47,498 nucleotides of DNA, from positions 1-47,498 of IMG/VR virus record IMGVR_UViG_3300022561_000016, one strand, 5' to 3'. Source of the DNA: a virus. The translations under genes and the position numbers were made by a program. The first letter of the stretch is position 1. Each line of letters starts with the position of its first letter. The notes beneath the pieces were generated by a model. The model was not told the DNA's origin, searched no databases, and saw only the letters and a list, made by a program, of their open reading frames with translations. Shown in pieces: positions 6,918 through 45,635 of this stretch.

Positions 6918-6990
6918 GCCTCCGTTTGTACCGCATCTCGGAACAAGAGTCAAGTACAGTATACCACACCAACCAATGATTAGTCTAGCA

Positions 6991-7019
6991 TTGCATTCTC
7001 TGATGTTATATGTTATACT
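6991..7019 (+). promoter_or_regulatory. Sigma70-type promoter (TTGCAT-17-TATACT)
   Basis: TTGCAT at 6991-6996, a 17-bp spacer and TATACT at 7014-7019, in an AT-rich divergent region. Confidence 0.55.
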
Positions 7020-7046
7020 AAGCAATAACTAGGAATACTAAGCAAT
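7015..7046 (+). repeat. Two 12-bp direct repeats ATACTAAGCAAT spaced 20 bp apart (putative operators)
   Basis: Copies at 7015-7026 and 7035-7046 overlap the -10 and the leader. TATACTAAGC also occurs at 47182-47191. Confidence 0.6.
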
Positions 7047-9381: not shown

Positions 9382-9385
9382 CGAT

Positions 9386-10714
9386 ATGCATATCGAAGAA
9401 CTGCCGCAGAATTTGGACGCAGAGAAGGCGACGCTCGGCAGCGTCCTGCTCAACCGCGATAGCTTGGTAGCGATTGCGAACTGGCTGACGCCGACGATGT
9501 TTTATCTCCAGCGGCACGCCGACATCTACGCGGCGATGCTGCACCTGTTCAGCCAGCGCACGCCGCCCGACACGCGCACCGTGTCCGACGAGCTGAAGCG
9601 GCGCGGCCAGCTGGAGGCCGTCGGCGGGACGATGTACCTGTCCGACCTGACCGACGCCGCGCCTTCCAGCTATCACATCGTTCACTATGCGCGCACCGTA
9701 GAGAGCCTCGCGATGCGGCGGCTGATGATCCGGAACAGCGGCAAGGCGGCGGCGCTGGCATACGACGAGAGCGTGTCCGATGATGATCTGCGTGCGGGCG
9801 TGATTGCGCTCGCGACCGAGGCGGCGACCGCGCGCGACGATGCCGGCGCGACCTCGATTGGCGAGATGATGGACAGGATGCTCGACCGGCTCGGTCAAGA
9901 CCGCGCGCCCGCCACCAGCACCGGCCTGCACGACCTTGACGAGATTATCTACGGTCTGACGCGGACGGGGCGGCTGATCACTATCGCCGGGCGTCCGGGT
10001 CACGGCAAGACGGCGCTGGCGCTCACGATGGGCCTGAGTTTGGCAGAGCAAGGCAAGCACGGAAAAATCTTTTCAATGGAGATGACTGAGGAAGAACTCG
10101 CCGACCGCTTCGCATCAATGCGGAGCAACATCGACGGCAAGATTATTCAGAGCGGCAGCCTGACCGACGACCAGTTCCGCAAAGTGACCGAGGCGGTCGG
10201 CGCGGTGAATCGATTGCCACTGTACACGCGCGCAGCCAGCACCTTCTCGCTGGCTGATATTCGCACCATGACGCTTCAGCACATCATGACGCATGGCCCG
10301 CTGGATTTCATCATCGTGGATTACCTGGGCCTTATGCGCGCCAGCGGTCGCAAGAATCAAACTCGCCAGCAGGATTTGGGCGAGATGACGCGCGGCCTGA
10401 AGGCGCTCGCGATGGAGACGGGCGCGGATCTGTTCATGCTGGCCCAGCTCAATCGCGACATTGAGAAGCGCGATAGTCCGACCCCCACCCTGTCCGACCT
10501 GCGGGAGGCTGGCGACATCGAGAACGACAGCAACATCGTGCTCTTCGTAATCAACCCGGAAAAGCTGGACCCGGAAACGACCGACAAAGGCAAGGGAATG
10601 CTGTGGGTCGTCAAGCATCGGGGCGGGCCGTGCGGCAAGGTGGAGTTGCACTTTAACGCGCCGTTGACGCGCTTTGACAACTTGGAGAAGTACCGTGCCG
10701 TCGATGGATACTAA
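9386..10714 (+). CDS. dnaB: Replicative DNA helicase DnaB
   Basis: N-terminus PQNLDAEKATLGSVLL, Walker A GRPGHGKT, IVDYLGLM and LAQLNRDIEKR are canonical DnaB motifs. Confidence 0.93.
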   Translation: MHIEELPQNLDAEKATLGSVLLNRDSLVAIANWLTPTMFYLQRHADIYAAMLHLFSQRTPPDTRTVSDELKRRGQLEAVGGTMYLSDLTDAAPSSYHIVHYARTVESLAMRRLMIRNSGKAAALAYDESVSDDDLRAGVIALATEAATARDDAGATSIGEMMDRMLDRLGQDRAPATSTGLHDLDEIIYGLTRTGRLITIAGRPGHGKTALALTMGLSLAEQGKHGKIFSMEMTEEELADRFASMRSNIDGKIIQSGSLTDDQFRKVTEAVGAVNRLPLYTRAASTFSLADIRTMTLQHIMTHGPLDFIIVDYLGLMRASGRKNQTRQQDLGEMTRGLKALAMETGADLFMLAQLNRDIEKRDSPTPTLSDLREAGDIENDSNIVLFVINPEKLDPETTDKGKGMLWVVKHRGGPCGKVELHFNAPLTRFDNLEKYRAVDGY

Positions 10715-11829: not shown

Positions 11830-12074
11830 CGCACGACAACACCGCCGAGCCGACCGTCAAGCGCGCCGCGTTCCCGATGGCGATCCTGCGCGGTGGCACG
11901 CCGCTGTTCCACGCGCCCGGCACGTTCCCGCCGGAGTATCGACGGGATGCGCAGCTCGAAGCGCTGTGGCGGGCCGGGCAACCGCAGCCGACAAAGCAAC
12001 TGATGTTTCCGGGCTGGGCGTTCGTGCCTGCGTCCGCCGCAATCGCCTGGCGGTCACAAGGGGGGAAGGCATGA
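11826..12074 (+). CDS. Hypothetical protein
   Basis: ATGA overlap at 11826. 82 aa. Confidence 0.45.
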   Translation: MTHDNTAEPTVKRAAFPMAILRGGTPLFHAPGTFPPEYRRDAQLEALWRAGQPQPTKQLMFPGWAFVPASAAIAWRSQGGKA

Positions 12075-12304
12075 ACAGCAAAGATAGCTTTGACCTAGGC
12101 TGCGCTTGGTGCGCCGCGCAAATCGCCTCCTGTGACGATCTACGCCGCGTTGGCGAGCGCATCGTTTGCCCGAACTGCGGCAAGCCCAACACCATCGAGT
12201 ACGATCAAGAGGATAATGACGACCCGTCCAGCGAATGCTATTTTTGCTTGCACCGGGTGATCGAGCAGCGCAAGCATGGTCACGCAACAATGGAGCTGAT
12301 ATGA
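12071..12304 (+). CDS. Zinc-ribbon protein
   Basis: CAWC...CPNCG...CYFC. ATG at 12071 after GGGGGAAGG. Confidence 0.5.
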   Translation: MNSKDSFDLGCAWCAAQIASCDDLRRVGERIVCPNCGKPNTIEYDQEDNDDPSSECYFCLHRVIEQRKHGHATMELI

Positions 12305-12651
12305 TCTACCCGACCGCCGCCGACCTCGCCGCGCAGGGCGTCACGTTGCAGCGCGACGTGTGCCTGTGGAGCGCATTGCTCCGGCGCGAGTCTGTCGAGG
12401 CCGAAGCTGAAGCCGAAGCCGCCGACGTGCCGCCGCAGCCCAAGCCCAAGCGGCCCGCCAGCAGCACGCCGCGCACGTTCGCATCCAAGTACGTCGGCGT
12501 CACGATCCATCACGACCGCTGGCTCGCGCAGTGGGGGCCGCGCGGCGCGAAGAAGGGCCGCGTGTTTCCGCTGACGCCAGCGGGCGAGCTGCTGGCGGCG
12601 ACCGAGCGCGCACGGGCGCTGGGCTTGGACGCGCCGCAGATCAGGGCGTGA
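12301..12651 (+). CDS. AP2-like DNA-binding domain protein
   Basis: SKYVGVTIHHDRWLAQWGPRGAKKGRVFPLTPAGELLAATERARA fits the AP2 pattern (Y.GV...W.A.......G.F....A). ATGA overlap at 12301. Confidence 0.55.
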   Translation: MIYPTAADLAAQGVTLQRDVCLWSALLRRESVEAEAEAEAADVPPQPKPKRPASSTPRTFASKYVGVTIHHDRWLAQWGPRGAKKGRVFPLTPAGELLAATERARALGLDAPQIRA

Positions 12652-14491: not shown

Positions 14492-14719
14492 ATGCCAAAA
14501 GGAACAGTAGCATTGTCGTGGGGAGATTGGGGCGGAGTCTACGCCAAGCGGGGCTATAGTTGGCGGCTGTGTTTTGGCTGGGTCGCCTTGACCTGGCTGC
14601 CCATCGAGCTTGACGATCTCGTTGAGGGGTACGCGCGCGCCGATGCGCTGGAGGCGCGGCTGGGCGATGCGATGGCGCTGGTGGCGACGCACGCCGAGAT
14701 TATGCGCAAAACATTGTGA
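14492..14719 (+). CDS. Hypothetical protein (Trp/Gly-rich N-terminus, C-terminus homologous to the upstream gene)
   Basis: 75 aa after AAGGAGG. Confidence 0.45.
   Translation: MPKGTVALSWGDWGGVYAKRGYSWRLCFGWVALTWLPIELDDLVEGYARADALEARLGDAMALVATHAEIMRKTL
14639..14681 (+). repeat. Direct repeat copy 2 (43 bp)
   Basis: 249 bp downstream of copy 1, in frame in both genes. Confidence 0.9.
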
Positions 14720-14735
14720 AATGAGGAGGAACAGG

Positions 14736-14969
14736 ATGCAGCTATTTGACCGACTACGAACGTGCCTTGAGTTGGAAAGCAAATCGCACAGGCTGTGGGA
14801 TGACGCATTCTCGAACGTGTGTTACGCCAAGCTATCGGAGAAGATGCGCGACGGCTATATCCAAAAGACATACGAAGCGACCCGCCTGCACGCCGAGGCG
14901 CAGCAGAATCTCCGCGATCTTGCGAAAGAGCTGAACGAAATACTCAGCACAGGATATCACCTCGACTAA
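14736..14969 (+). CDS. Hypothetical helical protein
   Basis: ATG at 14736 after GAGGAGGAAC. 77 aa. Confidence 0.5.
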   Translation: MQLFDRLRTCLELESKSHRLWDDAFSNVCYAKLSEKMRDGYIQKTYEATRLHAEAQQNLRDLAKELNEILSTGYHLD

Positions 14970-14972
14970 CAT

Positions 14973-15001
14973 GTGACAGAATGTGACAGGAGCGCTACGA
15001 T
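14973..15001 (+). promoter_or_regulatory. Conserved promoter/operator element copy 1 (GTGACA-17-TACGAT with GAATGTGAC in the spacer)
   Basis: ATGTGACAGAATGTGACAGGAGCGCTACGATA. An inverted copy TCACATTC lies at 15007-15014. Confidence 0.5.
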
Positions 15002-15082
15002 ACTGATCACATTCCTTTGTTGCGTAATCATTCCAAGCGTGGTACGATTGACTCGGTAGAAAGAGAAAGGAGTGAGAAAACG

Positions 15083-15214
15083 ATGCTTTTAAAACCGTGG
15101 TGGGATCGGAAGTCCGCCGCCCACAAAGCAGAGAATTGGCTGGGGGCGTGGCTGTACACCCAGCAAACGTCCCATCGGCGCAAGCCATCGTATACGCGCC
15201 GCAGTCCTCGTTGA
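15083..15214 (+). CDS. Possible 43-aa leader ORF
   Basis: ATG at 15083 after AAAGGAG. Its stop overlaps a TTG (15211) that could start the HTH gene. This is weak evidence. Confidence 0.3.
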   Translation: MLLKPWWDRKSAAHKAENWLGAWLYTQQTSHRRKPSYTRRSPR

Positions 15215-15417
15215 TTGCAGCGCTGACCACTCAGCAAGCCGCCGACGAACTCAAGGTGTCGCGGCGGCGGGTCAACACGCTGATCGCGCTCGGCACGCTG
15301 AAGGCGGAGAAGTTCGGCGCGGCGTGGCAGGTGGAGCGCGAGAGCGTTGAGGCCTACCGGGACAGCCCGCGCAAGGCGGGGCCGAAGGTCAAGAAGAAGA
15401 TCAGTGACGGAATGTGA
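15211..15417 (+). CDS. Excisionase-family HTH protein (paralog of 22888..23124)
   Basis: LTTQQAADELKVSRRRVNTLIALGTLKAEKFGAAWQVERESVEAY. The start is uncertain: TTG at 15211, or upstream as far as 15097. Confidence 0.55.
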   Translation: MIAALTTQQAADELKVSRRRVNTLIALGTLKAEKFGAAWQVERESVEAYRDSPRKAGPKVKKKISDGM

Positions 15418-15431
15418 CGAATTGCTACGAT
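15404..15431 (+). promoter_or_regulatory. Conserved promoter/operator element copy 2 (GTGACG-16-TACGAT)
   Basis: AGTGACGGAATGTGACGAATTGCTACGATA, overlapping the 3' end of the HTH gene. Confidence 0.5.
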
Positions 15432-15457
15432 AAGGATTGACAGTGAAAGGTAATGCA

Positions 15458-15760
15458 ATGACAGCGGAAATTATCGGCCCGTTTGAAGAAAACCGCGTGG
15501 TAGTGAATGGCTGCGCTGTGCCTGGGCTAACTGCGAACCATAGACCTGACGGAACTATCGAGTTGATCATTGATCGCCGGTTGGCAATTGATATTCCCGA
15601 AAGCCTGTTTAACCAAGTTGCATGGCTCGTGGCGAACGCACTGGCTATCGGGGCGGGATATTCATGCCACGGAGAGAACAGTCGAATCGCTAATCCATAT
15701 CAGGTGCGCGTATCTGCGCTTGGAGATGTGCCAGAGCCGCCAGTCACACCATCCGCGTAG
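15458..15760 (+). CDS. Hypothetical protein
   Basis: ATG at 15458 after GAAAGG. 100 aa. Confidence 0.5.
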   Translation: MTAEIIGPFEENRVVVNGCAVPGLTANHRPDGTIELIIDRRLAIDIPESLFNQVAWLVANALAIGAGYSCHGENSRIANPYQVRVSALGDVPEPPVTPSA

Positions 15761-15804
15761 ATAGTAAGTGGTTTTACGGCGAAATCAATCAGCTAATCAA
15801 CGAT

Positions 15805-15835
15805 GCTCGACGCCAGCGTAGAACCAGCGTCGAGC
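15805..15835 (+). other. 9-bp-stem hairpin (GCTCGACGC...GCGTCGAGC)
   Basis: Intergenic, with a 13-nt loop and no U-tract. Confidence 0.35.
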
Positions 15836-15873
15836 GGTGTATCCGAAGCGAATACGAGAGGAATAATACCACA

Positions 15874-16410
15874 ATGGCACAGCGACGACTCTTCGATGTC
15901 AATGGAAACGAAGTCATCCCCGGCGCACGTCCGACGCGCAGCGGGGCAGGGATCGGGGCGGCAATCGACACGGCGCTGAAAATCTTCGCCAGCGTGGCGA
16001 CGCTCATCCTGATCGCAGGCGTCGGCTATATGTGCTGGCCGCAGATTCGTGCGGCGTATTTCGCTGAGGCCGGAGCCGTCACGGTGACGACGCTGCCTCC
16101 CAGCGCGACCGAGCTTGACACGGTGAAGGCGCAGATGCAGCGGCTTGAAGCCGAGCTGCGCGCCGCACGAGCGCAGCAAGCAGATCCGGCGGTGATCGTC
16201 CAGAGCGTCCCAGCGGGGCAAGCGCCGCAGGCCGTGACGATCCCCGCGCCGCAGCCCCAGCCAGCGGTTGACGCGGCGGGGACGGTCGTGGAGGTCGCGC
16301 CACAGCCGATTGTGATCGTGCATCAGGTCAGCGCGGACGGAGCCGCGCAGACCGTTACCGGGTCGGGCGCGTGCCGAGTCTCGCGGGTCGCGGCGCGGTG
16401 CGGGAAGTGA
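15874..16410 (+). CDS. Membrane-anchored coiled-coil / Pro-rich protein
   Basis: One TM segment (IFASVATLILIAGVGYMCW), followed by a coiled coil and a PAPQPQP region. Confidence 0.55.
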   Translation: MAQRRLFDVNGNEVIPGARPTRSGAGIGAAIDTALKIFASVATLILIAGVGYMCWPQIRAAYFAEAGAVTVTTLPPSATELDTVKAQMQRLEAELRAARAQQADPAVIVQSVPAGQAPQAVTIPAPQPQPAVDAAGTVVEVAPQPIVIVHQVSADGAAQTVTGSGACRVSRVAARCGK

Positions 16411-16412
16411 AG

Positions 16413-17072
16413 ATGAAGCCGATATTGTTTAGTGCGCCGATGGTGCGCGCCATCCTCGACGGAAGGAAGACACAGACACGGCGGGTTGTGAAGCCGCAGC
16501 CGACCGTTACCGAAAACGGGTGCCCGCGATGGGGAACCTACGACGGAAGAAAAATGCATATGGTGCCGCGCAGGGCTGGCGGGGGAAGCGCGGTAACAAT
16601 GACCGACCTGATTGGCGAGTACTGTCCCTACGGGCGTGTCGGAGATCAGCTGTGGGTGCGCGAGACGTGGCACCCGTTCGGTACGGGTAAGCATCCAAAC
16701 TGGATGAGCGACCGCGTACTCTATCGCGCCGATAACGAAGGATTGCAGCCGTTCGATGGCTGCGCGAGTCATCCACTGCCGTCGCCGGTTGAATGGAGCG
16801 GGCGGCAAACATCAGCCTGGAAGCCTTCAATCTTCATGCCTCGTTGGGCGTCGCGCCTGACATTGGAGATCACAAGCGTGCGGGTGGAGCAGGTGGCGGA
16901 TATTACAACCAAAGATTGTGCCGCAGAAGGCGTACAACTTGAGCCAGGCCGAGATACCGAGCACTTGAAGCGCGATTTTATCGAACTCTGGGACTCCATC
17001 AACGCGAAGCGCGGATACGGCTGGTCAGCGAATCCGTGGTGCTGGGTTGTTGCGTTCAAGAGGGTGCAATGA
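16413..17072 (+). CDS. ASCH-like domain protein (MKPILFS.PMV.AIL.GRKTQTRR family)
   Basis: The N-terminal MKPILFSAPMVRAILDGRKTQTRRVV signature is common in prophage ASCH-like proteins. Confidence 0.6.
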   Translation: MKPILFSAPMVRAILDGRKTQTRRVVKPQPTVTENGCPRWGTYDGRKMHMVPRRAGGGSAVTMTDLIGEYCPYGRVGDQLWVRETWHPFGTGKHPNWMSDRVLYRADNEGLQPFDGCASHPLPSPVEWSGRQTSAWKPSIFMPRWASRLTLEITSVRVEQVADITTKDCAAEGVQLEPGRDTEHLKRDFIELWDSINAKRGYGWSANPWCWVVAFKRVQ

Positions 17073-17953
17073 TAGGCCGCATCATTCCCGTCGTGCTGAT
17101 TGCCCTGGTCGCTGGCGTGGCATCGTTCGCCCGCCAGCACCAGCTTGCCACCGCAGCACCGGCTCGCCTCGCACCCGCGCCCACCACGGCGCGCGAGGTC
17201 TGGGCGGTGGACTTCCTCGCGGCGCTGGGCAACGTGCAGCCGACGCCCGCGACGGTCGCAATGGTCGTCGCGTGGACGCTGGCAGAGGATAGCGGCGATG
17301 GCGCGTTTGAGCGCAACAACCCGCTCAACACGACGATCTGTGGACACAACTTCGTCGGTGCGATCAATGCCGACGGCGCGTGCGGCGTGGGGCATTACGC
17401 CAGCTATCAGGACGGCGTATCTGCCGCTGTCGATACCGTCACGCAAGCGAACTTTCGCGCGATTGTCGCCGCACTCCAAGCGAACGACGCGGACGGAGCG
17501 AAGCAGGCGCTATGGGCGTCGCCGTGGGCCGAGTCGCACTATGGCTACGGGAGTGACTGGCCGGTGTATCGCGTGGCTGCGCCGCCGGTTGCGCCACGCT
17601 GTCCGCTCGATCCGTGTTGGCAAAGCGGCACCGGCTACAGCGAAGGGCATCCTGGGATCGACCTGGGAGCGTCGGAGGGGCAAAGCGTTTACGCGGTCTT
17701 GGACGGCACGGCTGCGCTGTCGAGTACATGGCCGTGCGGCAATGGCGTGCTGATTACGGCTGGCGGTCGGCAAGTGCTGATGTGCCACCTGAGCGCGTTC
17801 ACGGTCGCCGATGGCGCGACTGTGCGGGCGGGCGATGTGGTGGCCCTCGCTGGGAGCACCGGACAAAGCACCGGCCCGCATGTGCATTTCGAACTGCGCG
17901 AAGACGGCGTGAGTATCGATCCGCGTGACCTATTACAAGGAGCATTGACATGA
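17069..17953 (+). CDS. Signal-anchored M23 (LytM-type) peptidoglycan metallopeptidase
   Basis: N-terminal TM segment IIPVVLIALVAGVASF. The C-terminus has HPGIDL...GDVVALAGSTGQSTGPHVHFE (HxxxD and HxH motifs). Confidence 0.85.
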   Translation: MIGRIIPVVLIALVAGVASFARQHQLATAAPARLAPAPTTAREVWAVDFLAALGNVQPTPATVAMVVAWTLAEDSGDGAFERNNPLNTTICGHNFVGAINADGACGVGHYASYQDGVSAAVDTVTQANFRAIVAALQANDADGAKQALWASPWAESHYGYGSDWPVYRVAAPPVAPRCPLDPCWQSGTGYSEGHPGIDLGASEGQSVYAVLDGTAALSSTWPCGNGVLITAGGRQVLMCHLSAFTVADGATVRAGDVVALAGSTGQSTGPHVHFELREDGVSIDPRDLLQGALT

Positions 17954-18378
17954 TCATTGGCTGGGTTGTCCTCGGTGCTGTCCTCGTCGCGCTCATCGTC
18001 GGCTTCGCGCTGGCGCCGCGCTCGTCGTCGGCAGCAGTGTATGACGATGATGATGATGAGCAGCAAGAAGACGAGCCGCCCGCGCGCCACACCCGCACGT
18101 TCTTCCCTGGCTACCATTATCGCTGGGAACAGATCGCGCCGTTCTTGTGGGCGCTTGGCTACACGCGCAACGAGGCGGATGCCATGTATACGCGCGGATT
18201 TGTCGAAGTGTGGCGCAATGGATTTTATGCCGAGTTTGACGCAACACTTGGTATGGCAGATCGAGCTGATGGCGAGCCAATGTTCGCCTGTCATGGCTTC
18301 GACTCGCGGGCGGATACTGAGCATGTGGACATTTGGGATCGCGCTCCTGACGCGCACGCATTGGAGGCCTATCGATGA
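17950..18378 (+). CDS. Single-pass membrane protein with acidic linker
   Basis: TM segment IIGWVVLGAVLVALIVGFAL followed by DDDDDEQQEDE. Confidence 0.55.
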   Translation: MIIGWVVLGAVLVALIVGFALAPRSSSAAVYDDDDDEQQEDEPPARHTRTFFPGYHYRWEQIAPFLWALGYTRNEADAMYTRGFVEVWRNGFYAEFDATLGMADRADGEPMFACHGFDSRADTEHVDIWDRAPDAHALEAYR

Positions 18379-18578
18379 CTATTGACTTCGCTTTCCTCAT
18401 CATTGACTTCGCTCTCTTCATCGTCGTCGCCGCGTTCGTCGTGTGCATCGCAGTGGCGCTACGTAAGCCGCGAGGGAACCCCTACGCCGCGCACGATGCG
18501 TTCGTTGAGTCGGAGCTGGCGCAGCTGCGGGCCGCTGGGATTAAGCCGAGCGGGGATATATGGAAGGATTTGATATGA
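18375..18578 (+). CDS. Small membrane protein
   Basis: Hydrophobic N-terminus encoded by a 21-bp tandem duplication (18381-18401 and 18402-18422: IDFAFLI / IDFALFI). Confidence 0.5.
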   Translation: MTIDFAFLIIDFALFIVVAAFVVCIAVALRKPRGNPYAAHDAFVESELAQLRAAGIKPSGDIWKDLI

Positions 18579-19252
18579 TGCACTATTGGACGAGGCGGCG
18601 CAAGATCAGCCTCGCTATTCACGTCGCGTTCGTGCTGGTGCCGTTCTCGCTGTCAACGGCATCCGCGCTGCTGTTCTGGTATGCGATGTTCGGCGGCTGG
18701 TGGCTGGCGGTGCCAATGGTCGCGGTGATCGAGGTGCTGTCGCTGGTTGGCTTGGTTCTGTTCCTGACGAAGATCGAGTCGCCGTTTGTGCAGCTGCGGC
18801 ACTTGCTACCGTTCATTTCCATCGTGCCGCTCGGACGAGAGTTGTACTTGCTCTTGCAGCACAACCCGCCAGTGATCGCATGGTCGCTGACAGTGGTCGC
18901 CACGCTGGTGCTGGTCGTCATCGCGTGGCAGTGCTTCAGGACAATCGAGCGACTGTTCATTGATCCGATGGAGGCAGCACGCGAGCACGCGCACGAGCAG
19001 GTGGCGGAGTTCCGGCTGAAACTGACCCAGCACGAAGAAATGAGTTTGATAGTGGACGACTTCATGCGCGAGCGCATGAACTATCACGGCACTATCACGA
19101 CAGTCCAGCCACTCGCATTTGAGAGTACCGCGCCAGCGCTCTCACTCTCAAAGACAGCGCGCGTGAGAGCGCTGGCGCAGTCAAGTGGCAGGAGTGAAAG
19201 CACGGTCTGGCGCGGCGTGAAAGACGGCACTATCAGCCTCGAAGGAGCATAG
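18575..19252 (+). CDS. Polytopic membrane protein with C-terminal HTH-like tail
   Basis: About 4 TM segments, then LSKTARVRALAQSSGRSESTVWRGVKDG. ATGA overlap at 18575. Confidence 0.55.
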   Translation: MMHYWTRRRKISLAIHVAFVLVPFSLSTASALLFWYAMFGGWWLAVPMVAVIEVLSLVGLVLFLTKIESPFVQLRHLLPFISIVPLGRELYLLLQHNPPVIAWSLTVVATLVLVVIAWQCFRTIERLFIDPMEAAREHAHEQVAEFRLKLTQHEEMSLIVDDFMRERMNYHGTITTVQPLAFESTAPALSLSKTARVRALAQSSGRSESTVWRGVKDGTISLEGA

Positions 19253-19254
19253 AC

Positions 19255-19725
19255 ATGGCAGTAACAACAGCACCACTGGTCACCCCGCGCGCGAAAGAGA
19301 GCGCCGTCGTGCGCCGCGCTACGCTGCGAAAGCAGCGCGGAAAGGTTGAGCGTGCGACCGCTTGGATCGTGTTGTTCGTGTCGGCTCTCGGCACCATAGC
19401 GACATTCGCAGGCGGATGGGAACCGCTTATCGCCAGCATCCGCGCCCTGCGGCCGAACTGGGCCGCGATTGCGGGCGGCGTTGGCGCACAGGCGCTGCTC
19501 ACGTTCCTCGAATGGCACTACTACGATGTGCCGCTCGTATCGTGGCCTGCGCGGTTTTTTGACACCATCCTGACCGCGCTTGGCTACGGGCCGCTGGTGG
19601 CTGCGCTGCTGATTGGCATTCTCACGACGCGAAATGCCCCGTTGCCTTTTCAGCTCGCGTGGGGTATTATTATTCTTGTATCGTTTTTGATCGCCTACTA
19701 CCCTGAAAGCCGCCTAGTTGAGTAA
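19255..19725 (+). CDS. Polytopic membrane protein
   Basis: Basic N-terminus followed by about 4 TM segments. Confidence 0.55.
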   Translation: MAVTTAPLVTPRAKESAVVRRATLRKQRGKVERATAWIVLFVSALGTIATFAGGWEPLIASIRALRPNWAAIAGGVGAQALLTFLEWHYYDVPLVSWPARFFDTILTALGYGPLVAALLIGILTTRNAPLPFQLAWGIIILVSFLIAYYPESRLVE

Positions 19726-19739
19726 TCGGAGATTGCCCG

Positions 19740-20285
19740 ATGACACAAGATGATGTGTTAAATACCGTCGTGCTGCTTATCGTGATCGGCGCGCTTGTGG
19801 TCGGGCTGCTCTCTATGCTGATCGGTAAGATCGTTGATGCCTGGGATGTATTCGCGGCGTGGTGGGGGGCGGGTGTGCAGAAGGCAATCCACACGCGACC
19901 GAGCGATATGTCAAGCAGGCGCGTGTGGATTTCGTCATATGAAGACGAAGAACCCGACGAACCGCGTTCAAGCGAATTTCCGCTACTGAACGGCGTAGAA
20001 CCACAATTAGAACGTTCCGTGAACCCGCCAGAACTGGCGTTGAACGCGGCGGAAATGGCAGCGATCCAGCGCATGATCGTACATAATAAAACAGCGGCCA
20101 AACCGTCAAAGTCCAGCACGATCCATGCAGGCTTTGGCGTATCGCGCGGTGGAAGCGCAGCGTACATTCGCGCCAGCCTGATCTATGACACGCTGTTTGT
20201 CCCACCAGCACCTACTGTCCGATATGTACAGCGCACGCCAGAGCAAGATGCTCTTCGTGATCAATTAGGCATAGCAAGACCCTAG
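19740..20285 (+). CDS. Single-pass membrane protein with C-terminal HTH-like segment
   Basis: TM segment VVLLIVIGALVVGLLSMLIG. The C-terminus has SKSSTIHAGFGVSRGGSAAYIRA. Confidence 0.55.
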   Translation: MTQDDVLNTVVLLIVIGALVVGLLSMLIGKIVDAWDVFAAWWGAGVQKAIHTRPSDMSSRRVWISSYEDEEPDEPRSSEFPLLNGVEPQLERSVNPPELALNAAEMAAIQRMIVHNKTAAKPSKSSTIHAGFGVSRGGSAAYIRASLIYDTLFVPPAPTVRYVQRTPEQDALRDQLGIARP

Positions 20286-20309
20286 CCCCACCACCTCCCC
20301 ATCCTACCG

Positions 20310-20335
20310 AGCGCCTGAGCAGTCAGGCGCTTTTT
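20310..20335 (+). terminator. Rho-independent terminator
   Basis: AGCGCCTGA-GCAG-TCAGGCGCT followed by TTTT. Confidence 0.8.
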
Positions 20336-20338
20336 GGT

Positions 20339-20367
20339 GTGACAAGAATGTGGCATTTCGCTACGAT
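20339..20367 (+). promoter_or_regulatory. Conserved promoter/operator element copy 3 (GTGACA-17-TACGAT)
   Basis: TGTGACAAGAATGTGGCATTTCGCTACGATA. Confidence 0.5.
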
Positions 20368-20385
20368 ATTGCAATAAATCTCTGC

Positions 20386-20413
20386 TTGCAATGCAAGCAT
20401 TGTGTGCTATGAT
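20386..20413 (+). promoter_or_regulatory. Sigma70-type promoter with extended -10 (TTGCAA-16-TGcTATGAT)
   Basis: TTGCAA at 20386-20391 and TATGAT at 20408-20413, preceded by TGC. The palindrome GCTTGCAaTGCAAGC overlaps the -35. Confidence 0.55.
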
Positions 20414-20474
20414 ATGCACATCGGTAGGGCAAAGTAGTACAGAGAAGCGCCCGATGCGGCGCGGAAAGGCCACT

Positions 20475-20972
20475 ATGAAGATCGTTCACACGTATCTGCT
20501 GGACATCGACTCCGAGGACGGCATCCCCGTGCTGACCGACGAGGAAGTACGGGCGAAGGCTCGCCCAGTCCGTGTGTCGGTTACGCGTCTCTCAGTCGAT
20601 CATCGAATGGATGGGTTTTGGCCGGAATCCAAGTGGTTCCAGTTTTGCGTTAACGATGTCGTCTTTGACGAGGAAGTCTCCGCCGACGAAGCGCGGATTA
20701 TCGCGTGGCGCACCGTCGCAGGGCGGCGTGCCGACCGCTATCAAATCAAGCCGAACGCCCTGCACGCACTCGCCAAGGCGGTGCTGCGAAACAAGGGCTA
20801 CCACTCGCCATCGAATGGTCGCGTCGTATCCTTCGACGGCGAGGGAGCCGTGGAATGGGCGGGGCGTACATGGCTCGTGCGCGGCTTCGGCCCGCAAGGC
20901 ACGCCGGAGTACGTCAGCAGCGATGGCGGTATCAAGTGTATCTCGGATCGCGGCGAGGTCATCTTCGTGTAA
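20475..20972 (+). CDS. Hypothetical protein in an insulated cassette
   Basis: ATG at 20475 after GAAAGG. 165 aa with no recognisable motif. Confidence 0.55.
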   Translation: MKIVHTYLLDIDSEDGIPVLTDEEVRAKARPVRVSVTRLSVDHRMDGFWPESKWFQFCVNDVVFDEEVSADEARIIAWRTVAGRRADRYQIKPNALHALAKAVLRNKGYHSPSNGRVVSFDGEGAVEWAGRTWLVRGFGPQGTPEYVSSDGGIKCISDRGEVIFV

Positions 20973-20996
20973 TCCCGCCCGCCCGCCGCCCACGCA

Positions 20997-21020
20997 ACGC
21001 CGCGCTAATCAGCGCGGCGT
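20997..21020 (+). terminator. 10-bp GC stem-loop after the cassette gene
   Basis: ACGCCGCGCT-AATC-AGCGCGGCGT. No U-tract. Confidence 0.4.
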
Positions 21021-22774: not shown

Positions 22775-22803
22775 TTGACAATCTGTCCCGTATGCGGTAC
22801 AAT
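22775..22803 (+). promoter_or_regulatory. Sigma70-type promoter (TTGACA-17-TACAAT)
   Basis: TTGACA at 22775-22780 and TACAAT at 22798-22803. The 12-bp repeats CTATTGA(A/C)AATC lie at 22749-22760 and 22772-22783. Confidence 0.6.
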
Positions 22804-22887: not shown

Positions 22888-23124
22888 ATGCTGACCACTA
22901 AGCAAGCAGCGACGGAGCTAGGCATACAGCCTGGTTCCGTGAAGACACTGTGTCAACGCGGTATCTTGAAGGCAGAGCGGATCGGGCGGGATTGGCTGAT
23001 TGAGCTATCCGAAATTGAGCGGTATAAGATTGAGCGACGAAGCCCAGGCAAGCCAAAAGGAACCAGCAATGAGCCACCCAAGCAGCAAGCGACCGGGTTG
23101 GAAGGTGATACGAAACCGCTTTAA
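22888..23124 (+). CDS. Excisionase-family HTH protein
   Basis: MLTTKQAATELGIQPGSVKTLCQRGILKAERIGRDWLI. Confidence 0.6.
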   Translation: MLTTKQAATELGIQPGSVKTLCQRGILKAERIGRDWLIELSEIERYKIERRSPGKPKGTSNEPPKQQATGLEGDTKPL

Positions 23125-24447: not shown

Positions 24448-25887
24448 CTAATATGCGAGTCGGCTCGTGTCGAGCACGCCGTTGATCGCGCTGTCGAGTA
24501 TGAAAAACTGATCATTGCCGACCGGGTACACCTGCCAGTTGGTCAGCCACTGCGCCGCGCCGATGCTCTGGCTCATCGCGGCGATGCGCGCCACTTTCGC
24601 AATCGTGCTGCCCCCGCCCGGCGGTCGGCGCAGCACGGTGATCTTGTCATCGAACGTGCGGCTGAGTATTTGCGGCCACAGCGTCAGCGGTGCCAGATCG
24701 CCATTCAGCACGAAGGATTGCACGCGCATATACGGCTGCGCGTACAGAATCAGCAGGTACTGTGCGCGCGACAGCGCCTCGGCGTCGGTCGTGATTTGCA
24801 GATTGGTGATCTGTTTCGCACGCACGCCGTAGGTCGCCTGACTGGCGGCGTCATTCGCCACCTGAACGGTGCCGCCCGCGCGCGTGACCTCGGCGTGATT
24901 GATCAGCCGCGTGTCATCAAACGAAAACGGCACATCGACATACGGCAGTTCGCCCGTGACTGGCGCACTGTTGCCGTGCGATGCGGCGATACTGCCATAC
25001 GCTCCGCGCGTGCAGCCGGTCAGTGTCGGCGGAAAGAACGACGTGTTAATGCCGGTGTAGGCGATGAACTCGCTGTCGATCTGCACGGTGCCAATGGTAG
25101 GAAAGCCCGCAGCGCTATTGAGCAGGATACTCGTCGCGACAGCGGTATGCGCGCCGAACAGCGGCGTGGTGGCCGTGCTCGATGCATCGCCAAACAGCGC
25201 GAAATTGGTACTATTCCGCGCCGACCAATAGCGATCATGATAGACGGTGCGCCCGTCGTCTTCAATGAAAAACGTGCCGCCGTCCGCCGCCGCAATCGTT
25301 TGGATCGCCGGAAGCGCGGGCTGCGACGGATACAGCTGCGCCGGGATCTGCGTCGGGCTGTTGACCCCGGCGTCACGATCCGCAGCCGGCCAGCCGATCA
25401 CGTTGAGCACGTCGCTAATCACGTTGACCGGGTTGTTGTTGCCCGTCTCGTTCATCGTGAAGGTGGTGTAGTTTAATGCTTTGAACAGGTCAACCGCCGT
25501 CAGCCGCACCAGGTTCTGCGCGACCGCGCCGATACTCGGATCAAGCGGCACCCAGCTTTCCACGTAGCCGGTGAACAGATCGTAGACCACGCTGTTCCAG
25601 GTTGCGCGCACGTTCACACGCCGGGTCGGGATGACATTCGGCCAGTACGGGCTGGCGGCGTTATCGGGGTCGAAGCGCCGATCCCGATTGTCAAGCATGA
25701 ACGAACACGTCCCGGCCTGCATGGCGTCCAGCTCGAACTGCCGCCCGCGATTGATCGTGATCGGACTGCCGCCGGGATTGCCGTCCAGCCACACATAGGC
25801 CGAAATATCGACCCAGGTAAGGCCTGCGATTGCCGCGAATGGCGCATTGCCAAACGCGATCCTGACTTGGATGGTCGGTCGTGTCAT
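24448..25887 (-). CDS. Distal tail / minor tail protein
   Basis: Lies immediately after the tape measure with an ATGA overlap. 479 aa. Contains I.IDSEFIAYTG....LTGCTRGAYGS, a pattern seen in minor tail proteins. Confidence 0.65.
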   Translation of the reverse strand: MTRPTIQVRIAFGNAPFAAIAGLTWVDISAYVWLDGNPGGSPITINRGRQFELDAMQAGTCSFMLDNRDRRFDPDNAASPYWPNVIPTRRVNVRATWNSVVYDLFTGYVESWVPLDPSIGAVAQNLVRLTAVDLFKALNYTTFTMNETGNNNPVNVISDVLNVIGWPAADRDAGVNSPTQIPAQLYPSQPALPAIQTIAAADGGTFFIEDDGRTVYHDRYWSARNSTNFALFGDASSTATTPLFGAHTAVATSILLNSAAGFPTIGTVQIDSEFIAYTGINTSFFPPTLTGCTRGAYGSIAASHGNSAPVTGELPYVDVPFSFDDTRLINHAEVTRAGGTVQVANDAASQATYGVRAKQITNLQITTDAEALSRAQYLLILYAQPYMRVQSFVLNGDLAPLTLWPQILSRTFDDKITVLRRPPGGGSTIAKVARIAAMSQSIGAAQWLTNWQVYPVGNDQFFILDSAINGVLDTSRLAY

Positions 25888-28800
25888 CGGATGCCCGTGC
25901 CTCCGTTGCGCGCCTGCAATTGCAACAGCGCGGCCTGAATCGCCTGTGCGTTCGCCGCTGCGTCCAATCCGCCCGGAATATAGATCTGCACCCCGCCGTT
26001 GATCTGCACGCCCGACAGTCCGGCCCCGCGTTCGCCCGCGCCGCCGACCGATGGCGTGATGCCGCTGGGATTACTCAGCTGCGCCAGATAGGCCGCGAAC
26101 TGGCCTTGTGCGGCGGCGGGATTCACGCCGAACTCGCTGGCGATCAGCGCGTGGCGCTTGTCGGCCTCCTGGCCGGTGATCGCGCTCATTTTCCGCTGCG
26201 TGTCGGTGTAGGCCAGCAGCTGCTTGCCCAGCGCCGTGTCAAGCGTCCCCTGCTGCTTGGTGTAGCTGGTCAGCGCGCTCGCTTCCTGGCGTGCGAAGCT
26301 GGTATTTTCGCTCGCGAGCTGGCGGGCGTGCGCCGAGTCAGCGACCTTCTGCTGCTTGTCGAACGCGGCCTGCGCCTTCAGCTCGCCCGTATCAAAGGCG
26401 GTTTGCGCGTCGGTCAGCTGCTGCGCCAGCGCGGCCTGACGCTGCTGGCGATTGGTCGCGAGATGCTGCGCCTGTTTGGCCTCGCCGCGATTGTAGCCGT
26501 CGCTCTCGGCATTGAAGCTCTTTTGCAGGCTGGCGGCATCGGCCTGATAGCGCGTTTCGTCACTCGCGATCTGCTTGGCGTGCGTGTCCTGGAGCTTGGC
26601 GAGCTGGCTTGCGGTCACACGGTCGGCGGTCGCAAGCTGGCGCGCATAGGCGGCGCTGGCGGCACCTTCCGCATTGGCGTAGGCGCTATCTTGCGCGGCC
26701 TGCTGAGTCGCCAGCGTGGCCTGCTGCTTGGCGAGCTGTTTCAGCGCCTGGGCGTCCTGCTGGGCCAGTTGTGTCGCGGCCTGGGCGTCCTGTTTGGCCT
26801 GCTGCAACGCGGCCTGCTGCTCGGCGCGTGCCGCCGTCTGCGCGGCCTGCTCCAGCTGTTTGGCGAACGCCTTTTCGGCCTTTTCGGCCTGCCGATCATA
26901 GCTGGTTTGGGCCTTGGCTTCCTGTTTGGCGTAGCGCTCATCCTCGCTATCGATCTGCTTTTGAATGCTGGCCTTTTGCTTGGCATCGACCGCCGCGTGC
27001 AGCTGCGTTTGCAGGTCGCCCAGGCGGTCGTTATGATCGCCCGCACGCGTTTGCCGATCTTCCTGGAATTGCTCGCTATTGGTCTGCTGTGCGTCGGCGG
27101 CGCTCCTTTGCAGATCGGCGGTGCGCTGCGCGTATTGCTGCTCCCTGTCGGCGAGCTGGGCGGCGGCTTGCGTTTGCCGGTCACTAGCGCGCTCAGCGGC
27201 TTGGGTTTGCCGGTCGGCGGCGGCTTCGACGGCCTGGGTTTGCAGATCGGCCCCGCGCTGCACAAGTTGGCCGATCCGATCCTGATACGATTGCGCGGAC
27301 GATGCCTGCCGGTCATGCTCGCGCGTCTGCATGTCGGTCAATTGCTGCGCGGCCACCGTCGCCGCCTCCACGCGCCGGGCCTGATAGTCCTGCTCGTGCG
27401 CCACGTCGGTGGTTTGGCGCGCGGTCTGGAGGTCGCTGGCGCGGGTGTGCAGGTCGGCGATCTTGGCCTGCTGCTGTTCGGTCGCCGCCGCCTGCCGATC
27501 CTGTTCGGTGGCAAGCGCGTCGGTTTCGGCGCGTGCGGCGGTCGCCAGCGTGCTGCGCTGGCGCTCCTGGTAGCTCGCTTGCCGGTCGGCGTCGGCATCG
27601 CGGTAGCTTTGCTGCGCCGTCGCGCGGCCACCGAGCGCCGCCTGATCGATGCTGGTGAGCCGCGCCTGATGATCCCCGGCGCGCTGCTGTTCGGCGTCGG
27701 CAAATTGCGCCTGGCTGTTCGCCAGCTTTTCATACGCGGCCTGCCCGGTCACGCCGGTTTTGTCGAGTTCGGACTGATACTTGGTCAGCTGTTCGGTGCT
27801 GGCCTGAGTCGAGAGCGCCAACGCGGCCTGCGACTGCGCGGCATCGCCCCACGAGCCGCCGCCGCCGTTCGACATCGCTGCATTGGCATCCTTCGCCAGC
27901 GGCGCAAGCAGCCCGTATTGTCCGCCGAGCTGCCCTAGCTGGTTGAAAACGTCCAGCAGATAGCCGCCGCTCGCGAACTTGGCGAGCGTGTTCGTGCCGA
28001 GAATGTCACCGACATCGCTGGTGCCCATGCCGGGGATCTTGATGTTTTGGAGCGTCTGATAGGCATCCACCACTGGACGCACCACGCCGTAGACTGCCGC
28101 GATCCCGTCGTACCACTGCTGACCTTGGCGGATGATCTGCGGGAGTTCGTCGCGCACAACCGCGCCCAGCGCTGCGCCAATCGCCTCGATATTGGCCTTG
28201 CCTTCGGGCGAGTTGAGCGTATCAACGAGCTGCTGGAGGTACGGCTGCACCTCTTTAATCGATGCACCTAGGAGGTCGCGACTGCCGATCTTTTCCAGGT
28301 CTTGCAGGCTGTTCATCAGGCCCGATACGGTGCCTGCCTGCCGCAGCGCCGCGCCGCCGAAATCGTTCTCAAGCGAGTACGCGATCGCCTTGATTGCCTG
28401 ATCCGCCGGGATCATCCCGGCCTCGCGCAGCTTGACAATCTCTTCGGTCGATTTGCCGAACGCCTTGGATAGAATCTGATCAACGCTAACGCCCGCCAGC
28501 GCAAGCTCTCGAACCTCACGCCCGCTGATGTTGCCTGAGATCTCGACCTTGCCCAGCGCGGCCGCCACGCGGTTGAGGACTTCGGTGGTTTGCCCCGAAC
28601 CGGCGCTGAAGTCAACCAGGTCTTGCGTCAACCGCTTGGCGGTGATCGCGGTTTTGTCGGCGCTCTCGGACACAAAGCCGAACGCCTCGACCGTCCTGAA
28701 CGCGCTGGCGATCCCTGCCTCGTCAAACGGCGAATTAACGGCGAGTTGCTCGTTCCACTTCAGCAGCTCCTGCGCTTTGGGCGCGGCCTGCGCTAAGGCG

Positions 28801-44585: not shown

Positions 44586-44607
44586 CGTGATTCCTCTAAT
44601 GCTTCCC

Positions 44608-45628: not shown

Positions 45629-45635
45629 ACTGCTC

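Follow-up and report, generated by a model that had tools for sequence, protein, structure and literature searches.

The RexAB system of phage lambda couples a 4-TM membrane protein to DNA sensing. SpdB2, a spread protein of Streptomyces plasmids, operates alongside other small membrane proteins and partners that bind peptidoglycan (PMC4447253), and AbiP of Lactococcus and PdpSau of S. aureus prophages are membrane-anchored, nucleic-acid-binding abortive-infection proteins (PMC10127798). In phi29, the membrane protein p16.7 brings viral DNA to the membrane (PMC4974454).

Here we describe six coupled genes (g1 to g6, 17069-20285), closed by a terminator, on the + strand of an uncultivated soil phage (the window, the whole 47,498-nucleotide stretch analyzed). 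The first-pass annotation knew of no system with this composition, and comparison with Pfam, PHROG, PADLOC, and PDB, which returned no matches for g2 to g6, supports that view; by sequence, g4, g5, and g6, the recurring core proteins, appear to be new families. SpdB2, phiC31 gp25, and DUF2637-type proteins are built like g4, with four TM segments that start from a cytoplasmic N-terminus and, after a linker that is variable or acidic, an HTH-like C-terminal tail in the cytoplasm, and proteins of this type are its top, weak fold matches, but SpdB2 and phiC31 gp25 share no sequence or profile similarity with it. The window also lacks a TraB-like translocase, no mycelial habit is known for its host, and an enzymatic wall hydrolase stands in place of the peptidoglycan-binding proteins of the SpdB2 system. 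AbiP and PdpSau, accessory genes on phage or prophage (PMC10127798), combine an N-terminal membrane anchor with a cytoplasmic nucleic-acid-binding domain, as predicted in g4; however, each is a single gene with one TM segment and an OB-fold, whereas the module has HTH or zinc-ribbon family tails, a 4-TM domain and, beside these, a wall hydrolase and several further membrane proteins as partners. PADLOC gave no match for any module protein. In p16.7, an early protein, a spacer joins an N-terminal TM segment to a DNA-binding domain at the C-terminus; g6 has this layout, its C-domain being a candidate DNA binder, but p16.7 binds terminal protein and serves protein-primed replication, whereas the replisome of this phage is DnaB-type; no sequence match between p16.7 and the module proteins was found. 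The catalytic domain of g1 is an ordinary member of the LytM/lysostaphin-type M23 peptidases, which include phage-borne ones; g1 differs in carrying its own predicted N-terminal export signal, in being encoded with membrane proteins on the early strand, and in belonging to neither a tail protein nor the lysis region.

Results

The cluster lies on the early strand after the replication genes, where the early arm ends and the convergent tail genes adjoin it. The six consecutive, mostly overlapping genes and the strong terminator described by the first-pass annotation were both borne out: ATGA overlaps occur at three junctions (g1/g2, g2/g3, and g3/g4), the g4-g5 and g5-g6 gaps measure 2 and 14 nt, and the intrinsic terminator (20309..20337, + strand) has, at 20309-20332, a 10-bp stem with six G-C pairs, followed by TTTTTGG. 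Each start is preceded about 7 nt upstream by a GGAG-type ribosome-binding site. A strong TM span is present in about 9 of about 73 phage genes, giving a probability of about 3e-5 for six consecutive ones by chance, and seven of the roughly nine TM proteins of the phage are grouped here. The dN/dS values against relatives (0.12-0.5) indicate that g1, g3, g4, g5, and g6 are real genes, as do the 116, 84, and 58 homologues found for g4, g5, and g6, respectively; for g2, the only indications are its ribosome-binding site (AAGGAG), an ATGA overlap at each end, and codon-position GC. A promoter-like motif, GAATGTGAC-N5-GCTACGATA, at 15410..15432 (+ strand) likely marks the start of the transcription unit. 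A motif search placed sister copies at 14979-15002 and 20346-20368, the latter directly 3' of the terminator; all three are intergenic and on the + strand, with 0 expected from shuffles, and a gene for a soluble HTH_17 protein (15097-15417) lies between two of them. The motif was not found in relatives.

The product of g1 (17069..17953, + strand) is predicted to be an exported M23 (LytM-type) peptidoglycan endopeptidase. Residues 193-285 match Peptidase_M23 (Pfam, E = 1.2e-22), M23 entries in PDB are also matched (best 2.4e-15), and both zinc-ligand motifs, H194-x3-D198 and H271-x-H273, are preserved (HPGID194, HVH271). While the M23 assignment of the earlier annotation stood, its membrane anchor became uncertain: the hydrophobic segment at residues 1-23, seen by hydropathy, may just as well be a signal peptide that is cleaved off (predicted cleavage between VASFA and RQ). 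The middle domain (160 residues, no assigned type) is 45% identical to its counterpart in locus L083. The five other proteins are membrane proteins by hydropathy and structure models, as had been proposed. Hydropathy likewise agrees with a single-pass g2 (17950..18378, + strand), in which one TM segment precedes an acidic stretch (DDDDDEQQEDE) and a 95-residue C-domain, and with a 67-aa, single-pass g3 (18375..18578, + strand). A family search with g2 gave no match, and no homologue occurred in the relatives' loci examined; g3 has a homologue in L086 only (38% identity; dN/dS, about 0.27). A 21-nt tandem duplication (18381-18422) lies at the 5' end of g3.

In its AlphaFold2 model (mean pLDDT, 74.7), the core protein g4 (18575..19252, + strand; 225 aa, starting MMHYW in the database call) has four TM helices followed by a helix of 43 residues and a tail of two helices, with a variable linker before the tail; both termini and the long helix are predicted to be cytoplasmic. 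Although 116 homologues were collected, 1.84 billion proteins yielded no more than 104 representatives of g4, and searches of 185,579 reference genomes and 50,697 cultured phages yielded none. The family has invariant SPF, RH, LP, and WQCF-TIE motifs (alignment A1) and a dN/dS of 0.12-0.30. Of the two HTH-like tails noted earlier, that of g4 is supported as a prediction by homologues whose tails match HTH_23, HTH_7, Sigma70_r4, and HTH_3; the window's own tail matches HTH_23 below threshold (E = 0.082). A CxxC...CxxC zinc ribbon replaces the HTH tail in some relatives (P0060, P0111, P0021), as would be expected if its job were generic nucleic-acid binding. In 9 of the 116 homologues, an HNH or T5orf172/MUG113 (GIY-YIG clan) domain is inserted in frame between the helix and the retained C-terminal tail.

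The remaining core proteins are g5 (19255..19725, + strand) and its constant neighbor g6 (19740..20285, + strand). The former is polytopic, as annotated, with three clear hydrophobic spans and a weak fourth; it has a basic N-terminus, a conserved C-terminal ...YPE..LVE motif, and invariant W97 and P150-E151 (alignment A5), and none of its 84 homologues has a Pfam domain. The latter is predicted to be single-pass with its N-terminus out and its C-terminus in, and an acidic or disordered linker leads to a small, strongly conserved C-domain (invariant ...RMI.HN..AKPSKSSTIQAGFGVSRGGS.AY.RASLIYD; alignments A2 and A4). Its AlphaFold2 model is confident for the TM helix, with the conserved motif KPSKSSTIQAGFGVSRGGS at pLDDT < 50; the tail has no Pfam match, and the second proposed HTH was not confirmed. 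Upstream, 15874..16410 (+ strand) encodes a single-pass protein with its N-terminus in and C-terminus out by hydropathy, a TM segment at residues 27-56, an outer part that contains a coiled coil and is rich in Pro/Ala, and a pair of Cys residues at the C-terminal end. A protein of this build lies upstream of g4 in all 10 relatives in which that region is present; BLAST found no similarity between it and these counterparts, and position and architecture are the sole basis for counting it in the recurring set.

In a comparison of 12 related metagenomic loci, g4, g5, g6, and this Pro-rich protein made up the recurring set, on phage backbones that otherwise share nothing. The six genes annotated as one module are therefore not one co-conserved unit, and the boundary drawn at g1 left out a seventh, upstream member. 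The wall hydrolase is an optional, swappable member, found in 5 of the 10 relatives scored for it as M23, NlpC/P60, or SLT+M23, and g2 and g3 are variable. The genes g4, g5, and g6 are adjacent in eight loci, with g5 directly downstream of g4; L091 has the g5-g6 pair without g4 or any hydrolase, and L084 and L001 have g4 without g5 and g6. In L083, a 4-TM + GIY-YIG gene immediately follows the g6 homologue. In L084, g4 adjoins a gene whose TM product carries Walker A and B motifs; Pfam, PHROG, and PDB gave no match for this P-loop protein.

Discussion

The candidate roles listed by the first-pass annotation, namely p16.7-like anchoring, exclusion, and wall remodeling, remain the right ones. 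We tentatively favor, as possible though short of probable, a composite accessory envelope module working on DNA at the inner side of the membrane in exclusion or abortive defense, following the logic of AbiP, PdpSau, and Rex rather than handling the phage's own DNA in the manner of SpdB2 or p16.7. We infer that g4, g5, g6, and the Pro-rich protein may form a complex in the cytoplasmic membrane, in which g4 would present a small nucleic-acid-binding tail (HTH or zinc ribbon) on a flexible linker at the cytoplasmic face, g6 might likewise offer its conserved C-domain to nucleic acid, and the Pro-rich protein would extend outward into the wall. An exported peptidoglycan endopeptidase would be co-translated with this core in about half of the relatives. 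On meeting DNA that touches or crosses the membrane, the complex could block, cut, or signal foreign DNA entry, either as a membrane-anchored binder like AbiP and PdpSau or as a 4-TM channel with a DNA sensor like RexAB; the hydrolase may be an independent wall-remodeling add-on or an effector freed upon membrane depolarization.

The in-frame nuclease insertions in g4 homologues tilt the balance toward exclusion or defense, although a flexible linker might tolerate them as selfish homing genes. Support comes further from the build of g4 with its exchangeable tail, the presence of a separate lysis region, the membrane nuclease gene in L083, the recurrence of the four proteins across the 12 loci and on unrelated backbones, the position where the early arm ends (a usual place for accessory genes), the bracketing of the unit by promoter-like motifs and a terminator, and the published AbiP and PdpSau precedents (PMC10127798). 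Conversely, exclusion or defense is weakened by the empty PADLOC search, the lack of an integrase in the window, an exported peptidoglycan hydrolase with no obvious place in exclusion, purifying selection on g4 that is unusually strong for a defense gene, and unsupported DNA binding by g6.

It is doubtful, though worth serious weight, that g4, g5, and g6 instead tether replicating or transferred phage DNA as p16.7 does or form an SpdB2-like pore or translocation site. The hydrolase would then open the wall locally and, in a filamentous host, could move phage DNA between cells; nothing indicates a filamentous host. DNA-transfer machines of Gram-positive bacteria use N-terminally anchored M23, SLT+M23, and NlpC/P60 hydrolases, which those of the module and its relatives resemble. 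Besides its SpdB2-like build, the cluster follows the replication genes and shares with phiC31 gp25 a place at the end of the early region. SpdB2 itself is a pore-forming protein that binds both double-stranded DNA and peptidoglycan, a part in spreading phage DNA was suggested for its homologues in actinophages (PMC4447253), and p16.7 is a known membrane organizer of replication (PMC4974454). The top Foldseek matches of g4 in BFVD were actinophage proteins of the SpdB2 kind (RGL3 Orf23 [prob, 1.0; TMt, 0.58], phiC31 gp25, and DUF2637 proteins), but the E-values were 0.1-3, and a membrane bundle of four helices carries little information as a match; profile comparison of g4 with phiC31 gp25 and RGL3 Orf23 gave probabilities of about 1% or less, and a DUF2637 match was absent from 30 distant homologues. 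The Walker A/B protein beside g4 in L084 would fit this reading, but it went unmatched in the databases named above, and the window's module has no ATPase. Nucleases attached to g4 homologues would endanger the phage's own DNA, and its replication is not protein-primed.

An unlikely alternative to an exclusion complex is that the genes have no single function and are two or three independent accessory units lying side by side: g1-g3 (a hydrolase with small variable TM genes), g4, and g5-g6. The changing or missing hydrolase, the lack of conservation of g2 and g3, the loci in which g5-g6 or g4 stands apart, and an unrelated ASCH-like gene (phrog_874) separating 15874-16410 from g1 all fit this view. 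Against it, ATGA overlaps couple translation from g1 to g4 in the window, one terminator serves all six genes, g4, g5, and g6 are contiguous in eight loci, and most TM proteins of the phage are concentrated here.

An auxiliary or alternative lysis cassette, in which g1 would be a Sec-exported endolysin, g2 and g3 holin/antiholin-like, g4 and g5 pore-formers, and the 15874-16410 protein spanin-like, is improbable. Hydrolase domain swapping is typical of endolysins, g2 and g3 are holin-like in size and charge, the 15874-16410 protein has the TM segment, coiled coil, and Pro-rich part, and SpdB2, related by build, gave T7 lysozyme access to the wall (PMC4447253). However, a full lysis region lies among the late genes, with two minus-strand genes, Amidase_2 (45974-47053) and an endolysin-like one (PHROG; 44055-44585), and with TM proteins encoded at 45080-45628 and 43975-44154. 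The g1-g6 cluster, on the opposite, early strand, is thus separate from it, as the first-pass annotation held. The membrane proteins also persist in the half of relatives where the hydrolase is missing, and predicted DNA-binding tails and nuclease insertions would be left unexplained.

Least likely of all, and very improbable, are membrane-sequestered transcription factors, with g4 (and g6) tails freed or activated by an envelope signal to act on the promoter-like motif: g4 tails resemble Xis-, resolvase-, or HTH_23-like small HTHs, which are usually site-specific, and the threefold motif brackets the unit, but a zinc ribbon can take the place of the tail, neither a protease nor a cleavage site is apparent, relatives lack the motif, and the soluble HTH_17 protein is a simpler candidate regulator.

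Organization of the early-strand membrane gene run

With about 47.5 kb, the window looks like a complete tailed-phage genome. Its plus strand carries early functions over positions 1-22,000, including a DnaB-type helicase (9386-10714, plus strand; phrog_19, E = 8.8e-92) and a DUF3102-Dam protein, and its minus strand encodes TerL (39808-41292), the tape measure protein (25884-29150), and the portal, capsid, and tail proteins. A Cro/CI-type repressor (6666-7025, minus strand) is present, although no tRNA was found in the window and no integrase among the larger reading frames scanned there. Six plus-strand genes follow one another at the positions reported in the first-pass annotation: g1, an M23 peptidase (17069-17953), and the membrane proteins g2 (17950-18378), g3 (18375-18578), g4, which has a predicted helix-turn-helix (HTH)-type tail (18575-19252), g5 (19255-19725), and g6 (19740-20285). 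ATGA overlaps were found at three junctions, a GGAG-type ribosome-binding site lies about 7 nt 5' of every start, and the strong terminator said to close the run was recovered as a GC-rich hairpin of 10 bp followed by a T tract (20309-20337). Hydropathy revealed clear hydrophobic spans in all of g2-g6, and the charge distribution indicated an N-out/C-in single-pass topology for g2, g3, and g6 and cytoplasmic termini at both ends of g4 and g5. Strong transmembrane (TM) spans occur in about 9 of the approximately 73 phage genes, 7 of them within 15874-20285, and the chance of six TM genes standing consecutively is about 3e-5. Purifying selection on five of the genes was evident from dN/dS values against relatives (g4, 0.12-0.30; g5, 0.14-0.19; g6, 0.4-0.5; g1, 0.42; g3, 0.27).

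The proposal that the lysis genes lie elsewhere also held. An Amidase_2 enzyme that includes a Pro-rich linker and a C-domain (45974-47053, minus strand) and an endolysin-like protein related to glucosaminidases (44055-44585, minus strand; phrog_8124) are encoded on the other, late strand, with TM proteins between these lysis enzymes (within 43975-47053) at the head of that strand; the phage thus encodes at least three wall hydrolases, g1 included. The g1-g6 run was therefore rejected as the canonical lysis cassette, being on the early strand while the muralytic enzymes accompany the late genes at 43975-47053. One 182-aa two-TM protein of the lysis region contains a perfect 33-nt tandem repeat (45198-45263).

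A composite module in metagenomic relatives

The surroundings of g4 homologues were read in 11 further loci, together with those of a g6 homologue in the locus L091; as the former were found through g4, its presence in them is by construction. Across loci g4 was 49-84% identical, with flanking genes mostly unrecognizable by BLAST. A g5-type polytopic protein ending in PE..LV(E/D) was encoded directly 3' of g4 in eight loci, and in these eight a g6-type protein (a TM span, an acidic linker, and a small helical domain) adjoined g5; in two loci (L088 and L094) the g6-type protein was upstream of g4. L091 carried g5 (45% identity) and g6 (51%) without g4 and without a hydrolase. A single-pass protein whose long outer part is rich in Pro and Ala and whose C-terminus carries a Cys pair, encoded in the window at 15874-16410 (plus strand), was found in all ten loci in which the upstream region is present. 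Directly upstream of g4 in L084 (8692-10026), a 444-aa protein combines TM spans near its N-terminus with a Walker A (GPSGQGKS) and a Walker B (IVWDELP) motif; since it matched nothing in Pfam, PHROG, or the PDB, we do not call it FtsK-like. A g6-like C-domain was also tested in this protein and rejected. Among the partner proteins of the relatives, PHROGs matched only a GIY-YIG domain. In the window, the Pro-rich protein gene is separated from g1 by an unrelated ASCH-like gene (16413-17072, plus strand; phrog_874, E = 1.5e-68), whose longest reading frame overlaps 15874-16410.

Judged by its sequence, g1 is an ordinary, standard M23 peptidase, as first annotated: it matched Pfam PF01551 with 80.4 bits (cut-off, 28.7; E = 1.2e-22) and M23 chains of the PDB with a best E-value of 2.4e-15. 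Its zinc ligands, H194-PGI-D198 and H271-V-H273, align with those of 3slu, and the presence of both motifs indicates an enzyme and not an EnvC-like activator, EnvC and NlpD being devoid of these ligands. Its description as signal-anchored was upheld in part: the first 23 residues are hydrophobic, but the stretch ends in ASFA|RQ, so that a cleavable signal peptide is equally possible. The type of hydrolase varied among loci (M23 in the window, L083, and L087; NlpC/P60 in L086; SLT plus M23 in L085), and an N-terminal export signal was predicted on every hydrolase of these five loci. No hydrolase was found in the other five of the ten loci (L084, L088, L093, L094, and L096), where g4 and its partners stay, and a lysis cassette with jointly inherited hydrolase and membrane genes was rejected on account of this loss. 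No g2 homologue was found in the loci, and the only g3 homologue was in L086. In L083, the g2 position (9177-9572) encodes no membrane protein but a soluble one with a Phage_ABA_S domain (Pfam E = 1.5e-15). The 5' end of g3 contains a 21-nt tandem duplication (18381-18422) that encodes IDFAFLI/IDFALFI within the TM span.

These data confirm what the first-pass annotation observed, and its interpretation is partly supported. The positions and the coupling of the genes stand, but the single six-gene module is a composite in which the g4-g5-g6 set recurs, the hydrolase is facultative, and two small genes vary. Because of this, and because a further recurring member (15874-16410) lies outside the coordinates originally given, the module needs to be redrawn.

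The relatives found were all metagenomic, with at least some of the samples coming from soil. Neither region 16000-21000 (megablast) nor g4 (tblastn) had a match in 50,697 cultured phages. The closest terminases (35-37% identical) belong to phages of Proteobacteria and the closest capsid (32% identical) to Microcystis phages, and the amidase of the window had no match in the host-clue search. In most g4-bearing relatives an integrase lies 4-6 kb upstream of the module. Sampling through a tail gene yielded nothing in IMG/VR and one locus, L097, in a metagenome scan; the tail genes of L097 are 57-84% identical to those of the window, and g4, g5, and g6 were not found in the 5.5 kb available past them. 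Past its tail genes, L097 encodes ParB-like and ParA-like proteins (14708-16906, minus strand), which hint at a plasmid-prophage relative.

g4 combines a conserved membrane domain with an exchangeable tail

In the alignment of 20 g4 homologues, a highly conserved membrane domain is followed by a long helix, a variable linker, and a short tail. The membrane domain contains numerous invariant residues (R9, S12, P23, G59, S69-P-F71, R75-H76, L78-P79, S82, P85, E89, W118, C120, and T123-I-E125), and the tail takes the form ARV.ALA...GVSERT.WR. The AlphaFold2 model (pLDDT 74.7) comprises four membrane helices, a 43-residue helix, and an HTH at 193-217, with tail helices at 193-204 and 208-217. Several homologues matched HTH_23, Sigma70_r4, HTH_7, or HTH_3 in Pfam, and in three (P0060, P0111, and P0021) the HTH was replaced by a CxxC...CxxC zinc ribbon. 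The HTH-like tail noted earlier was supported by the Pfam matches of its homologues and by the two modeled helices, the window's own tail being sub-threshold (HTH_23, E = 0.082), and we accept it as a predicted nucleic-acid-binding module.

Of the 116 homologues found in a 5.8-billion-protein set (a profile search of 1.84 billion representatives gave only 104), nine are longer and contain a nuclease-type domain by Pfam; five of these sequences were read. In P0022 and P0027, an HNH domain is inserted in frame after the long helix, with the zinc-ribbon tail retained beyond it, and an in-frame T5orf172/MUG113 domain (GIY-YIG clan) precedes a retained HTH tail in P0009, P0044, and P0086; the other four had Pfam matches to HNH (P0045 and P0058) or T5orf172/MUG113 (P0096 and P0114). 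In L083, a separate gene encoding four TM helices fused to a GIY-YIG nuclease (11850-12563) lies directly 3' of the g6 homologue and precedes a terminator and a strong promoter. Homing genes that a flexible linker tolerates are one explanation of these insertions; we lean towards selected membrane-tethered nucleases, because a membrane anchor would be odd for a homing enzyme.

When one genome from each of 185,579 species was scanned, the g4 alignment revealed neither a g4 relative nor a prophage host, the only match being a chance-level one of 28 residues. Within the g4 coding sequence, a 19-nt inverted repeat (19127-19145/19163-19181) spans the linker and tail and folds as RNA at -40.2 kcal/mol (z = -3.7); it shows one compensatory C:G to T:A change in L086 and is poorly retained in L082.

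The g5 and g6 families

Homologues numbered 84 for g5 and 58 for g6. None of the g4, g5, or g6 homologues is named, and their Pfam domains are limited to the HTH tails and the inserted nuclease domains. Searches of g2-g6 against PHROG, NCBIfam, and PADLOC, and of ten proteins against PADLOC, were without match, and none of Pfam, PHROGs, PADLOC, and the PDB includes the g4, g5, or g6 family. The most conserved part of g6 in its alignments is the C-terminal 80 residues, with the pattern RMI.HN..AKPSKSSTIQAGFGVSRGGS.AY.RASLIYD. The second HTH-like tail proposed for the run, that of g6, was not confirmed: its C-terminal 87 residues and all 58 homologues lacked a Pfam HTH match, the conserved motif was modeled at pLDDT < 50, and the model, whose C-domain is of low confidence, had no fold match in the PDB (Foldseek). 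A resolvase-type HTH is suggested only by the FGVSR pattern of g6, and this is a resemblance. Two candidate relationships of g5 were rejected at hhalign probabilities below 1%, namely a paralogy with the g4 membrane domain and a g5-like identity of a 190-aa protein in L088.

Comparison with known systems

To our knowledge, only a few phage systems have membrane proteins that display a nucleic-acid-binding domain on the inner membrane face, examples being p16.7 in replication, SpdB2 in DNA spread, and AbiP/PdpSau in defence; here, g4, and possibly g6 too, is accompanied by membrane-protein partners and an exchangeable wall hydrolase. The families of the g4-g5-g6 set form a new group within a known kind, phage nucleic-acid binders with a membrane anchor. 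SpdB2 of Streptomyces plasmids is an oligomeric, pore-forming protein with four TM helices that binds double-stranded DNA and peptidoglycan (Thoma et al., PMC4447253), and g4 is predicted to share this build, with four TM helices, cytoplasmic termini, and an HTH tail. SpdB2, however, works with the FtsK-like translocase TraB, whereas 15874-20285 of the window has no P-loop protein, and only L084 among the loci has a TM protein with Walker A/B motifs, which is without family match. The g4 model had no match in the PDB (Foldseek), and its top matches among viral models (BFVD) were weak (E = 0.1-3) and fell on actinophage membrane proteins: the 'excisionase' Orf23 of Rhodococcus phage RGL3 (prob 1.0; TMt 0.58; E = 0.1), phiC31 gp25, and DUF2637 proteins of Gordonia phage Jace and an uncultured phage. 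phiC31 gp25 resembles g4 in layout, with four TM helices between a basic N-terminus and a Pro/Glu-rich linker that leads to an HTH-like end, and lies at the end of the early region, adjoining a GntR regulator. In hhalign, the g4 alignment reached probabilities of only 1.2% with gp25 and 0.1% with Orf23, and 30 distant g4 homologues gave no DUF2637 match. Membership of g4 in DUF2637/SpdB2 was rejected for want of profile similarity; its likeness to SpdB2 and gp25 is one of build, not of demonstrable descent.

The phi29 protein p16.7 combines a membrane anchor with a nucleic-acid-binding domain and organizes replication (PMC4974454). It serves protein-primed replication and binds the terminal protein, whereas the replication genes of the window are DnaB-type, and neither a terminal protein nor a protein-primed polymerase was seen there. 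The abortive-infection proteins AbiP and PdpSau likewise consist of a membrane anchor and a nucleic-acid-binding domain (PMC10127798); g4 matches this architecture with its predicted cytoplasmic domain, but the predicted binding fold is an HTH or zinc ribbon in g4, as against an OB fold in AbiP/PdpSau.

Possible roles of the module

Common to all readings is the notion, which we consider slightly favored, that membrane-fixed proteins present nucleic-acid-binding tails to the cytoplasm. Phage membrane proteins of known role that are neither lysis nor structural proteins act mostly in exclusion. For this reason, and because the genes occupy the usual accessory-gene position, move between unrelated phage backbones, have an interchangeable binding tail, and have repeatedly acquired nuclease domains, we tentatively prefer a role in exclusion or abortive defence, even though it assigns no clear part to the hydrolase, PADLOC gave no match, and the constraint on g4 is unusually strong. 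Strong purifying selection on g4 across otherwise unrelated backbones suggests that the host or DNA target is conserved. If exclusion or defence proved true, the module would represent a new membrane-level anti-phage mechanism carried by phages; weighing against such significance, phage genomes often contain groups of membrane genes that have no explanation.

Handling of the phage's own DNA, in the manner of SpdB2 or p16.7, is possible, if less probable than exclusion or defence: it better accounts for the presence of a hydrolase, of a protein reaching into the wall, and, in L084, of a P-loop protein, but the window has no motor, homology is lacking, and the attached nucleases conflict with it. 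It is doubtful that independent units are merely juxtaposed, an explanation that agrees with the modular distribution but disagrees with the tight gene coupling. Because the phage has a lysis region elsewhere and half of the relatives have lost the hydrolase, we consider an auxiliary lysis cassette unlikely; membrane-held regulators are a minor option that we regard as very unlikely. Equally improbable, the module might be a phage-borne counterpart of the Streptomyces Tra/Spd apparatus, passing phage DNA between filamentous soil-host cells without virions; g4 would then serve as the pore and DNA-binding component and, with g5, g6, the Pro-rich protein that spans the wall, and the exported hydrolase, open a route through membrane and wall. 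If true, such DNA transfer would change the view of phage spread in filamentous bacteria.

Transcription unit and promoter-like motif

The motif GAATGTG(A/G)C-N5-6-GCTACGATA, which resembles a -10 element plus an upstream element, occurs in three plus-strand, intergenic copies that bracket the module (0 expected from shuffles): at 14979-15002, before an HTH_17 gene (15097-15417); at 15410-15432; and at 20346-20368, just 3' of the terminator. It is probably a phage-specific promoter or operator and would define a transcription unit of 15410-20332. Conservation of the motif in relatives was rejected, as it was not found there; L083 shows the same layout as the window, with a terminator and then a promoter after its module. 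The HTH_17 (Xis/MerR-like) gene at 15097-15417 (plus strand), situated between two motif copies, has a paralogue at 22888-23124 (plus strand; 43% identical) that forms a plus-strand islet inside the minus-strand late arm. Ahead of this second gene lies the region's best sigma-70-like promoter, TTGACA-17-TACAAT (22775-22803).
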